The translations under genes were made by a program, and so were the position numbers. Shown one piece after another: positions 29,041 to 30,063 of a stretch of DNA of 64,000 nucleotides; the stretch's first letter is position 1, and each line of letters begins with the position of its first letter. Source of the DNA: Escherichia phage 4MG; sequence record NC_022968.1; one strand, given 5' to 3'. A model generated the notes under the pieces. That model was given only the letters and a program-made list of their open reading frames with translations. It did not search any database and was not told where the DNA came from.

Positions 29041-29111
29041 CGGGAACTTCCTGACTCGAACAGGAGACAACCGCAGCACAAGCGGCCATTATGCCCCTTA
29101 ACTAAATTCCC
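29041..29111 (-). tRNA. tRNA with anticodon GTG (His-type) but G73 and C37, atypical
   Basis: T-arm TCCTG/actcgaa/CAGGA on plus strand, anticodon loop TTGTGCT, CCA encoded. Confidence 0.45.
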
Positions 29112-29118
29112 AATTTGG

Positions 29119-29191
29119 CGGAGATACCGGGCATCGAACCCGGAACATACCCGTGACAGGGGTGTATTTTATCCGTTTAAACTATATCTCC
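29119..29191 (-). tRNA. tRNA-Asp (GTC)
   Basis: anticodon loop CTGTCAC, perfect acceptor pairing GGAGATA/TATCTCC, CCA encoded. Confidence 0.75.
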
Positions 29192-29199
29192 AAATTTGG

Positions 29200-29285
29200 C
29201 GGTTCCTGAAGGATTCGAACCTTCGTTGTGGATTGCTCCAGGCAGGTTAACAGCCTGCTACCATCGGCCTCTCGGTCAAAGAACC
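29200..29285 (-). tRNA. class II (long variable arm) tRNA carrying Asn anticodon GTT
   Basis: 86 nt; T-arm GAAGG-TTCGAAT-CCTTC, anticodon arm GCAGG-CUGUUAA-CCUGC, 17-nt variable arm with 4-bp stem, G73, CCA encoded. Confidence 0.55.
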
Positions 29286-29458
29286 ATGTAATTACTTTAT
29301 CAGTCAAAACAACCTTTTGCAAGAATTATTTCAACTTATTTTCAATTTGGCGGGATCTGAGGGTTTGCACCTCACCTACGGTCCTGGATGCCCGTCATTC
29401 TGCTCCGCTGGTTGCCGTCGCATTTCCAGCCTCATTAAACTATCGTCCCGTTGTATGG

Positions 29459-29542
29459 TGGGTCGGGTGGGATTCGAACCCAACGATCCCTCGATTAAAA
29501 GTCGAGTGCCTTAGACATACGTCGCCGCTTGGCTACCAACCC
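29459..29542 (-). tRNA. tRNA-Lys (TTT) candidate with extended D-region (84 nt)
   Basis: T-loop TTCGAAT, anticodon arm CTCGA/CTTTTAA/TCGAG, CCA encoded; D-loop region about 18 nt. Confidence 0.45.
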
Positions 29543-29550
29543 ATATTTGG

Positions 29551-29636
29551 AGGAGAGCAACAGAATCGAACTGTCACCGTATCGCTACGATGGGACCGGG
29601 TTCAAACCGGAGTCTGCACCATGCAGCCTGCTCTCC
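29551..29636 (-). tRNA. tRNA-Ser (TGA), class II
   Basis: 86 nt, perfect acceptor pairing GGAGAGC/GCTCTCC, long variable arm hairpin, anticodon loop TTTGAAC. Confidence 0.7.
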
Positions 29637-29638
29637 GG

Positions 29639-29663
29639 AGGAAGATGTCAGACTCGAACTGAC
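29639..29663 (-). other. tRNA 3'-half-like fragment (acceptor strand plus T-arm only)
   Basis: T-arm GTCAG-actcgaa-CTGAC identical to that of tRNA-Cys at 31141..31157, but no pairing 5' acceptor strand or anticodon arm found. Confidence 0.3.
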
Positions 29664-29719
29664 ACACCCGTTTCGGGGCTACTGTCTCTTTAGCAAAGAG
29701 ATCCCTTACCTGATTAGGG

Positions 29720-29875
29720 TTAATCTTCCAATTGTTCTTTAATTTCTTTACGAAGATCTGCTTTTTCTTTCGCACGAGTGATAGGGATTGATTGAATTTC
29801 ATCTGCAACACCACAGTTACTACCGTGAATCTTACAGCGTCCAAATACCTTTTTACAACGCAAAAGTTTCTGCAT
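29720..29875 (-). CDS. small Cys-containing protein (51 aa) embedded in tRNA cluster
   Basis: ATG at 29875 with RBS AGGAGA; MQKLLRCKKVFGRCKIHGSNCG... Confidence 0.35.
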   Translation of the reverse strand: MQKLLRCKKVFGRCKIHGSNCGVADEIQSIPITRAKEKADLRKEIKEQLED

Positions 29876-29892
29876 AATATCTCCTAAAGTGG

Positions 29893-29982
29893 CGGTGGAA
29901 GTAGGATTCGAACCTACGGACCCCGTTTGAAGGGGCCGACACCTTTCCAAGGTGCTGTCTTAAACCGCTCGACCATTCCACC
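29893..29982 (-). tRNA. tRNA-Ser (GGA), class II
   Basis: 90 nt, perfect acceptor pairing GGTGGAA/TTCCACC, long variable arm, anticodon loop TTGGAAA, G73. Confidence 0.65.
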
Positions 29983-29990
29983 AAAATTGG

Positions 29991-30063
29991 GGTGACCTGT
30001 GGGTATCGCTCCCACTTCCTCAACGTCACAGGTTGAACATCATCTGATAAATGCTTAGGCCAC
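29991..30063 (-). tRNA. tRNA-His (GTG) with non-canonical T-loop
   Basis: perfect anticodon stem TCAAC/GTTGA, loop CTGTGAC, C73, CCA encoded; T-loop AGCGATA. Confidence 0.6.

Follow-up and report, generated by a model that had tools for sequence, protein, structure and literature searches.

Bacterial histidine tRNAs are identified by G-1, C73 and the anticodon G34-U35-G36, and G-1 and C73 are the two main determinants in Escherichia coli (PMC9976931). The E. coli gene hisR encodes G-1 in 5426 of 5426 complete genomes. It is already known that phage tRNA clusters contain odd tRNAs, that phage T5 has tRNA-like stable RNAs, and that the T5 tRNA-His (T5t07) has no encoded G-1. The T5 gene, which lies in a large phage tRNA cluster, combines GUG and C73 with T at position -1, and its record notes that replacing the anticodon by 5'-CAU-3' yields an effective amber suppressor. 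Some alpha-proteobacteria, Caenorhabditis elegans mitochondria and some protists also use tRNA-His without an encoded G-1, identity being carried by position 73 and/or the anticodon (PMC9976931). Here we compare with these systems two tRNA-like genes with GUG anticodons, gene A and gene B, that lie in a 64,000-nucleotide (nt) stretch of Escherichia phage 4MG (NC_022968.1; hereafter the window).

The gene that tRNA finders accept (gene A) is a rare and erratic accessory, and the gene with the strange T loop (gene B) is conserved and probably the ancestral tRNA-His of the phage subfamily. We put at about 0.58 the probability that gene B still works as a histidine tRNA and that gene A is a dispensable accessory outside the histidine set, a reading drawn from sequence comparison. 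The two genes and their diagnostic parts are as follows.

29988..30063, minus strand: gene B, a non-canonical tRNA-His(GUG)-like gene of 73 nt plus an encoded CCA (body 29991-30063, CCA 29988-29990), from a hand fold, the minimum-free-energy (MFE) fold, a pairing scan and covariation
30027..30029, minus strand: GUG anticodon of gene B, in the loop CUGUGAC (30025-30031), from the family alignment
30004..30010, minus strand: T loop of gene B, AGCGAUA (A54 G55 C56 G57 A58 U59 A60), read in the sequence
30041..30050, minus strand: D loop of gene B, UUAUCAGAUG, with AG at the G18-G19 site, from the family alignment
29038..29111, minus strand: gene A, an accessory GUG tRNA-like gene of 71 nt plus CCA (body 29041-29111), called tRNA-His(gtg) by ARAGORN and scoring 45.6 bits with the Rfam tRNA model (threshold 29)
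29077..29079, minus strand: GUG anticodon of gene A, in the loop UUGUGCU (29075-29081), from the sequence and family comparison

Two cloverleaves with a GUG anticodon

The window comes from the genome of a Vequintavirinae phage that resembles Seunavirus. The closest relative in GenBank, Escherichia phage vB_EcoM_LNA4 (Seunavirus), is 97.8% identical over the query; Cronobacter phage GAP31, Salmonella phage PVP-SE1 and Mydovirus phages of Klebsiella and Proteus are also related. Genes A and B sit inside a minus-strand cluster of about 30 tRNA genes (28179-34878), in which ARAGORN makes 25 tRNA calls. We scanned the window with a program that considers pairing only (acceptor stem 7/7, D stem at least 3/4, anticodon stem 5/5, T stem 5/5) and ignores conserved bases. 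Over both strands of the 64 kb it returned 15 sites, all in the minus-strand cluster and including genes A and B at the positions given above; ten random 64-kb sequences of the same composition gave 0, 0, 0, 0, 1, 0, 0, 0, 0 and 0 hits, or about 0.1 per 64 kb. Both cloverleaves are real, each with an acceptor stem of 7 bp, a D stem of 3-4, anticodon and T stems of 5, and a 7-nt anticodon loop.

Gene B reads GUGGCCU-AA-GCAU-UUAUCAGAUG-AUGU-UCAAC-CUGUGAC-GUUGA-GGAA-GUGGG-AGCGAUA-CCCAC-AGGUCAC-C-CCA. Its acceptor (GTGGCCT/AGGTCAC), anticodon (TCAAC/GTTGA) and T (GTGGG/CCCAC) stems are followed by C73, the cloverleaf is both its MFE and its centroid structure, and the anticodon loop has the expected U33 and a purine, A37, at position 37. 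The core is another matter: gene B has A8, U14, A18-G19, A54-G55-C56 and A58, and does not match the conserved set U8, A14, G18-G19, T54-Psi55-C56 and A58. ARAGORN leaves it uncalled in the window, and the Rfam tRNA model (RF00005, gathering threshold 29 bits) gives no hit for it, whether in an 8-kb search at E<=1 or in a 116-nt search at E<=10.

Gene A reads GGGAAUU-UA-GUUA-AGGGGCA-UAAU-G-GCCGC-UUGUGCU-GCGGU-UGUC-UCCUG-UUCGAGU-CAGGA-AGUUCCC-G-CCA. The conserved core is present (U8, A14, a GGGG D loop and the T loop TTCGAGT). It carries G73 and T at -1, and hence neither C73 nor G-1; its anticodon loop has U33 yet C37, and the loops of its relatives have G33 or A33. For the window copy, MFE folding yields a structure other than a cloverleaf.

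The original prediction had placed two GUG-anticodon cloverleaves here, one with G73 and C37 and the other with C73 and the T loop AGCGATA, and every one of these features is found, on the minus strand, in the pairing scan and in the sequence itself. The GUG reading of 29041-29111 survives refolding: ARAGORN reads gtg, and the only stem kept by covariation gives a 7-nt loop with GUG at positions 34-36. The tRNA-finder check that it proposed divided the pair, as ARAGORN calls gene A tRNA-His(gtg) and makes no call for gene B.

Conservation and descent of gene B

A search with 126 nt around gene B hit 62 phage records, of which about 50 are from Vequintavirinae. None of these ~50 Vequintavirinae records annotates a tRNA at gene B, several have a spurious 'hypothetical protein' there, and records annotated with tRNAscan-SE (NINP13076 and FENT2) likewise skip it. 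tRNA finders depend on a consensus from which the D loop and T loop of gene B depart, and this would explain why the gene has escaped annotation. LNA4 and Mydovirus phages of Klebsiella, Proteus and Raoultella carry exactly the same 76 nt, and the gene differs at 1-5 positions in GAP31, FENT2, PVP-SE1, SSE121, NINP13076, CspD17 and Salmonella phage 19. Measured against 12 relatives, gene B shows 0-5 differences per 76 nt, compared with 5-41 differences in the 45-57 nt of the adjacent upstream spacer (Fisher p 0.016 to 1e-18). Of 10 related loci, 9 carry gene B with 93-100% identity, whereas many of the canonical tRNAs in the cluster are less than 80% identical or have been replaced. By these comparisons gene B is under stronger constraint than its surroundings.

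The few changes that do occur are confined to particular places. Within the Vequintavirinae-type set, all differences are loop sites (one D-loop position, variable-loop position 45, and T-loop positions 54 and 58) or belong to one compensatory pair, an A-U to G-C change at anticodon-stem pair 30-40 in GAP31, FENT2 and the locus L149.

Searches with blastn tie gene B to tRNA-His(gtg) genes called by ARAGORN in the Cronobacter phages S13 and LPCS28 (Straboviridae), Vibrio phage phi3 and Pectobacterium phage My1 (Demerecviridae). The tRNA-His is annotated in the LPCS28 and phi3 records and unannotated in those of My1 and S13. Gene B is 83% identical to the S13 gene, and an alignment of 10 distinct family sequences has a mean column identity of 89%. 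These relatives share with gene B the GUGG acceptor start, a conserved G4-U69 wobble, A8 and U14, the absence of nucleotide 26, the same D stem, the anticodon loop YUGUGAC, a GGAA variable loop, C73, an encoded CCA, and T or C at -1. They differ from gene B in having GG in the D loop and UUCGAUU or UUCAAUU as the T loop (in My1 AUCGUUA, that is, A54 and U58), whereas in Vequintavirinae the D loop carries AG and the T loop begins with A, C or U54, then G55-C56-G57, then A or U58 (AGCGAUA, CGCGAUA, UGCGUUA). The series of T loops also contradicts a GNRA tetraloop at G55-A58 (GCGA) of gene B, a fold that we discarded in view of the UGCGUUA and AUCGUUA variants.

Across the 10 distinct sequences, 210 of 210 pair cells of the cloverleaf are standard and 21 of 21 pairs hold. 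Nine of the 21 change on both sides, a number reached by 0 of 500 shuffles, and registers slid along the alignment are only 31-50% paired. One of the covarying positions is D-stem pair 12-23, where A-U becomes C-G in S13. In the anticodon loop, U33, G34, U35, G36, A37 and C38 are invariant in 10/10, and position 32 is C or U.

Metagenomes add further members of the family. A loose 14-base pattern for the B family, run against IMG/VR, gave 1 real member in 119 among the matches listed, the rest being chance, and a stricter pattern found known isolates only; the metagenome scan yielded 9 real members. One of these, L145, joins a B-type acceptor stem to canonical D and T loops and has A73; because it combines the two, it resembles the ancestral state. 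Another, L153, has the T loop UGCGUUA, and ARAGORN calls this B homologue a tRNA-His. In a survey of the Vequintavirinae cluster loci that we fetched, the only other histidine calls by ARAGORN were in Enterobacter phage EC152 (a T5-type gene) and Salmonella phage 19 (a homologue of gene A). Together, these alignments place gene B as a derived member of a phage tRNA-His lineage, and we hold it very probable that it is a conserved gene of tRNA-His descent.

Two neighbouring elements were seen beside gene B. The first lies 4 nt upstream and may be a processing or structural signal; its counterparts in relatives can also be folded by eye, with weaker pairs.

30068..30091, minus strand: hairpin GAGUGUUUU(U)-AUUU-(G)AAAGCACUC, seen in the sequence

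The second is an extra unannotated element, starting GCAGAUACG, that follows gene B (or the tRNA-His of EC152) in EC152, DP, P8734, Iguana, Mydo, Ro1, L149 and L153. The EC152 copy (locus L001, ~2370-2460) ends CGUAUCUGC-CG and forms a long terminal stem. The element is absent from the window, LNA4 and GAP31, where the tRNA-Ser comes directly next.

Histidine identity and the elbow of gene B

Gene B has C73 and the GUG anticodon, and its encoded base at -1 is C. C73 is invariant in the 10 aligned GenBank sequences of the B family, and position -1 is T or C, never G, in 19 of 19 GenBank homologues and in the 9 metagenome copies. We also considered reading G1 of gene B as G-1 and discarded this, as it leaves a CCCA tail in the sequence. 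Compared with E. coli hisR, gene B shares G1-C72, U2-A71, G3-C70, G4 and C5 on the 5' strand, C73, CCA and GUG, so that 3 of its 7 acceptor pairs match the host tRNA-His. The host gene differs in having an encoded G-1, canonical D and T loops, G4-C69 in place of G4-U69 and the anticodon loop UUGUGAU, and the two genes also differ at pairs 6-67 and 7-66.

The T5 gene and the T5-type tRNA-His of EC152 resemble gene B in having GUG, C73, an E. coli-like acceptor stem (in these two GUGGCUA), no G at -1 (here T) and a large phage tRNA cluster around them; the EC152 gene sits exactly in the slot of gene B, between tRNA-Gln and tRNA-Ser(GGA). Unlike gene B, both have a canonical core (U8, A14, GG, TTCGA), and at ~42-44% identity to gene B they belong to a separate lineage. 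Because T or C stands at -1 in all homologues of gene B, and T5 and EC152 are alike in this, the missing encoded G-1 is a family trait and not a defect specific to the window. A phage-like metagenome contig (L148; Ga0136554_1007491) carries two tRNA-His(gtg) genes, at 1980-2055 and 3476-3551, one canonical with an encoded G-1 and C73, the other of the B family with T at -1 and no complete CCA; such a pair indicates that histidine tRNA pairs recur in phage clusters.

The natural G-1-less systems are a looser parallel. Their histidyl-tRNA synthetases (HisRS) are mostly co-adapted, often to A73, and the C. elegans HisRS merely tolerates a missing G-1, whereas gene B would have the G-1-dependent host HisRS as its only enzyme. 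A Pfam scan of 20 of the larger open reading frames (ORFs) in the window found no HisRS, Thg1-like or RNA-ligase domain; the domains that it did find belong to NAD salvage, PRPP synthase, Sir2, DNA ligase, ribonucleotide reductase and a ThyX-like gene.

We propose that gene B and the canonical tRNA-His(GUG) genes of some T4-like and T5-like phages share an ancestor. In Vequintavirinae, gene B would have lost the elbow signature: A18 stands for G18, position 54 holds A, C or U and position 55 holds G, and pairing between 54 and 58 is not maintained. The G18-Psi55 and T54-A58 contacts would be given up and G19-C56 kept, and the gene still has its four stems and anticodon loop as well as C73 and an encoded CCA. 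Genes A and B would be transcribed along with the minus-strand cluster, and host enzymes would trim the ends of both to a 5' end at G1. As position -1 of gene B is C or U and cannot pair with C73, its mature 5' end is probably G1, without G-1. Host HisRS would charge it through C73 and GUG, probably less efficiently than the host tRNA, and it would read CAY codons. Anticodons for the other 19 amino acids are all represented in the window cluster (ARAGORN calls, Rfam-only hits and manual anticodon readings taken together), and gene B is most likely the otherwise missing tRNA-His of the subfamily.

Several points weigh against a working gene B. G-1, the main determinant for E. coli HisRS, is not encoded. 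U8, A14, G18, T54 and Psi55 rank among the most conserved tRNA positions; gene B has none of them, and RF00005 gives no match even at E<=10. Most of the covariation comes from the canonical-looking relatives, with just one compensatory pair inside Vequintavirinae. The T loop drifts at positions 54 and 58 among members of the clade (A/A, C/A, U/U), which looks like relaxed constraint. Finally, EC152 carries the canonical T5-type tRNA-His in place of gene B, a swap which shows that gene B is not indispensable.

The rejection by both ARAGORN and Rfam, the drift at 54 and 58 and the exchange in EC152 would all suit a dead tRNA-His relic that persists only inside a packed, co-transcribed cluster, CAY codons being read by the host tRNA or by gene A; the cluster does hold other degenerate tRNA-like genes, such as 30264-30333 with its anticodon loop of 4-6 nt. 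A relic, however, would hardly stay at 93-100% identity across genera next to a 45-nt spacer and many functional neighbours that diverge far more. Nor does it sit well with the absence of uncompensated stem changes in 7 distinct Vequintavirinae-type sequences, one of whose pairs changes in a compensatory way, with an invariant 33-38 segment of the anticodon loop, or with retention of the gene where the upstream context has been replaced (CspD17, L153). We therefore judge this account rather unlikely.

The elbow of a tRNA is a contact site of the ribosome and of RNase P. Strong conservation of anticodon loop and stems around a remodelled elbow could also mark a tRNA-derived RNA whose role is mainly outside decoding, either a decoy or sponge for a host nuclease or modification enzyme that acts on tRNA-His-like or QUN loops, or a processing or regulatory element of the cluster. 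The T5 cluster has annotated stable tRNA-like RNAs of unknown function, and phage tRNAs have been hypothesized to counter anticodon nucleases, including colicin E5 (PMC10264068; PMC1635277). Yet gene B keeps C73, the encoded CCA and the E. coli-like G1-G3 start, which matter for charging and not for anticodon-loop mimicry, its canonical-looking homologues are ordinary tRNA-His genes, and no candidate partner was identified; we think such a role unlikely. A more far-reaching reading would have purifying selection keep gene B in its finder-invisible, G-1-less form with the elbow rebuilt as an adaptive escape from host recognition or modification of the elbow or of His or QUN tRNAs, CAY decoding being retained and gene A serving as a companion decoy or nuclease-resistant variant. 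This remains a doubtful, speculative proposal. Of these accounts, we favor the one in which gene B is still charged with histidine and decodes.

Gene A, its cluster and the phage tRNA complement

Gene A has a far narrower distribution. Queried alone, it matches only 4 phage records, at ~85-86% identity: Klebsiella phages DP and P8734 and Salmonella phages 19 and 41. Further homologues are present in Klebsiella phage Iguana_ER37 and in one 172-kb IMG/VR contig (L132), and apart from L132 a relaxed pattern for gene A gave chance matches only. The gene follows directly after tRNA-Asp in 5 of 5 loci checked for the neighbour (the window, DP, Iguana_ER37, Salmonella phage 19 and L132). It is absent, with a clean junction, from LNA4 (the closest relative), GAP31, EC152 and most others. 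The cassette consists of the tRNA and a 4-nt spacer and is bounded by a repeated CCA-AAUU(U)G spacer; we propose that gene A is a separate cassette, gained and lost at these repeated CCA-AATT(T)G junctions.

The anticodon stem covaries within the family (GCCGC/GCGGU versus GCCUC/GAGGG), which fixes the loop as U-N-G-U-G-C-U. GUGCU is invariant, and all copies have G73. At position 33 the window has U and most relatives have G; L132 has A there and a loop of 6 or 8 nt. The homologues labelled 'tRNA-Thr' in DP and 'tRNA-Gln' in P8734 are ~85% identical to gene A, follow tRNA-Asp and have G73 and GUGCU, differing from it by G33, and the Iguana record has an overlapping reverse-strand coding sequence at its homologue. 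The differing isotype labels indicate that annotation tools disagree on these genes. We rejected the Gln(CUG) fold that ARAGORN gives for the DP and P8734 homologues, along with the 'tRNA-Thr' label, since its stems are weak (2 Watson-Crick and 2 wobble pairs) and fail on the window copy.

No tRNA of the window is more than 58% identical to gene A. The nearest relative there, at 58%, is the minus-strand sequence 30264-30333, to which ARAGORN gives the call 'tRNA-???'. Its acceptor stem and T arm are perfect and position 73 is G; the anticodon stem CCACU/AGUGG closes the short loop noted above, and no CCA is encoded. Its GAP31 counterpart is annotated as a pseudo 'tRNA-OTHER'.

Very few tRNAs are known to have a pyrimidine at position 37. 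This bears on whether gene A, acquired as a backup for a failing gene B, is the working tRNA-His of the phage. It passes ARAGORN and Rfam, its T loop is canonical, its D loop contains GG, and in the window it presents GUG behind U33. Against this, it has C37, and with G73 and no encoded G-1 it departs from both main E. coli histidine determinants (PMC9976931); its homologues have G33 or A33 or loops of 6 or 8 nt, MFE folding of the window copy gives no cloverleaf, and nearly all phages that carry gene B, LNA4 included, do without it. We consider this explanation very unlikely.

Counted against the E. coli identity table (PMC9976931), gene A has 3/5 histidine determinants (the anticodon only), 3/4 for Asn, 3/5 for Asp and 7/10 for Gln (G73, G2-C71, G3-C70, G10, U35, G36 and U38, without U1-A72, U34 and A37). 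Glutaminyl-tRNA synthetase is thus the best partial fit for charging by an enzyme other than HisRS, which would have CAY read as another amino acid. The three missing Gln determinants speak against it, mutations at such positions costing up to 10^5-fold in catalytic activity (PMC9976931), as do the lack of an evident benefit of histidine-to-glutamine miscoding and the erratic loops of the relatives, which argue against any decoding role. Charging of this kind is extremely unlikely.

We infer that gene A is probably a poor histidine acceptor or none. Its erratic loop geometry argues that it is decaying, or else not selected for normal decoding, and it may be a decaying or a specialized tRNA-like RNA. 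The T5 tRNA-like stable RNAs rna1-3 offer a precedent for non-decoding tRNA-like genes in a cluster. Colicin E5 cleaves Tyr, His, Asn and Asp tRNAs with a strict need for a pyrimidine before G34-U35 (PMC1635277), and phage copies of E5 targets often show anticodon-loop changes (PMC10264068). As a lead, this rule would make the G33 and A33 relatives of gene A resistant and the window copy, with U33, not.

The original prediction contrasted a GUG tRNA with histidine features and one without, and suggested that one of the two may be diverged or not a histidine tRNA. For gene A, with G73 and no G-1, the lack of histidine features is borne out, and the suggestion is a probable reading. The first overstates gene B, which lacks the full bacterial histidine set (-1 is C), and the second would not apply to it, the gene with the odd T loop being conserved and probably an ancestral tRNA-His and not the suspect.

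The transcription context of both genes was examined by consensus scan only, with the following matches.

31062..31124, minus strand: two sigma-70-like promoter matches, 10/12 each, upstream of the cluster part that holds genes B and A
28115..28132, minus strand: a terminator-like GC hairpin followed by a T run, directly past the last tRNA of the cluster

The promoter scan gave 14 sites, compared with 8.3 +/- 3.5 in shuffles. From these consensus matches, genes A and B plausibly belong to one polycistronic unit. Three further promoter-like sites with a common consensus (TTGACA, 17 nt, TAGTAT) lie on the minus strand in the upstream part of the cluster, at 34927-34899, 34623-34595 and 33608-33580.

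Other members of the cluster also escape one tool or another. Rfam adds three minus-strand tRNAs that ARAGORN misses: 28179-28257 (45.0 bits; anticodon CAU, labelled Met in GAP31), 29459-29542 (50.5 bits; UUU, Lys) and 30428-30498 (27.2 bits, weak; UCC, Gly, with U73), all with enlarged or odd D regions. The tRNA count in this phage group varies strongly with the tool chosen. Between tRNA-Asn and tRNA-Lys, on the minus strand at 29343-29452, lies an element of ~107 nt that starts GGGACGAUAGUUUAAUG, has a T-arm-like GAGG-UGCAAAC-CCUC and ends AGAUCCC-G-CCA followed by the usual spacer. Uncalled by ARAGORN and Rfam, it is 100% identical in GAP31, FENT2 and EC152 and might represent a tRNA interrupted by a large insertion, or else a stable tRNA-like RNA of the T5 kind. 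A small conserved ORF (29730-29885, minus strand) lies between two tRNA-Ser genes and is also found in GAP31 (hypothetical protein GAP31_192), EC152, DP and NINP13076; because it starts ~8 nt past tRNA-Ser(GGA), it would be co-transcribed with the tRNAs.

Between 28850 and 30100 on the minus strand, nearly every tRNA gene encodes its terminal CCA, and AAUUUGG, AAUUG or AUUUUGG then separates it from the next gene. Many cluster tRNAs are swapped for unrelated alleles between close relatives, and the intergenic spacers may be recombination points for the shuffling of tRNA cassettes. Adjoining the tRNA region, at 36145-39214 (minus strand) and 44099-44875 (plus strand), is an NAD-related set of genes: NAPRTase-family (560 aa), ribose-phosphate pyrophosphokinase-like (266 aa) and Sir2-family (258 aa). 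Farther on in the window are a DNA ligase, a ribonucleotide reductase and a ThyX-like gene.

A tRNA-His with a non-canonical elbow that is conserved across a phage subfamily and unannotated in ~50 related records appears to be new; our searches of the literature turned up no account of a tRNA-His in Vequintavirinae or of the T-loop variant of gene B. About 50 Seunavirus and Mydovirus genomes appear to be short of tRNA-His only, and gene B indicates that it is present and unannotated, so that phage tRNA complements can be under-counted. Should gene B prove to be charged and used, it would give E. coli-type systems a natural case in which a tRNA works although it lacks U8-A14, G18-Psi55 and T54-A58, and in which tRNA-His is recognized with no G-1. 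Such a tRNA would bear on the need for the elbow in translation, on recognition by HisRS, and on the current idea that host defences that target tRNAs shape the tRNAs of phages.

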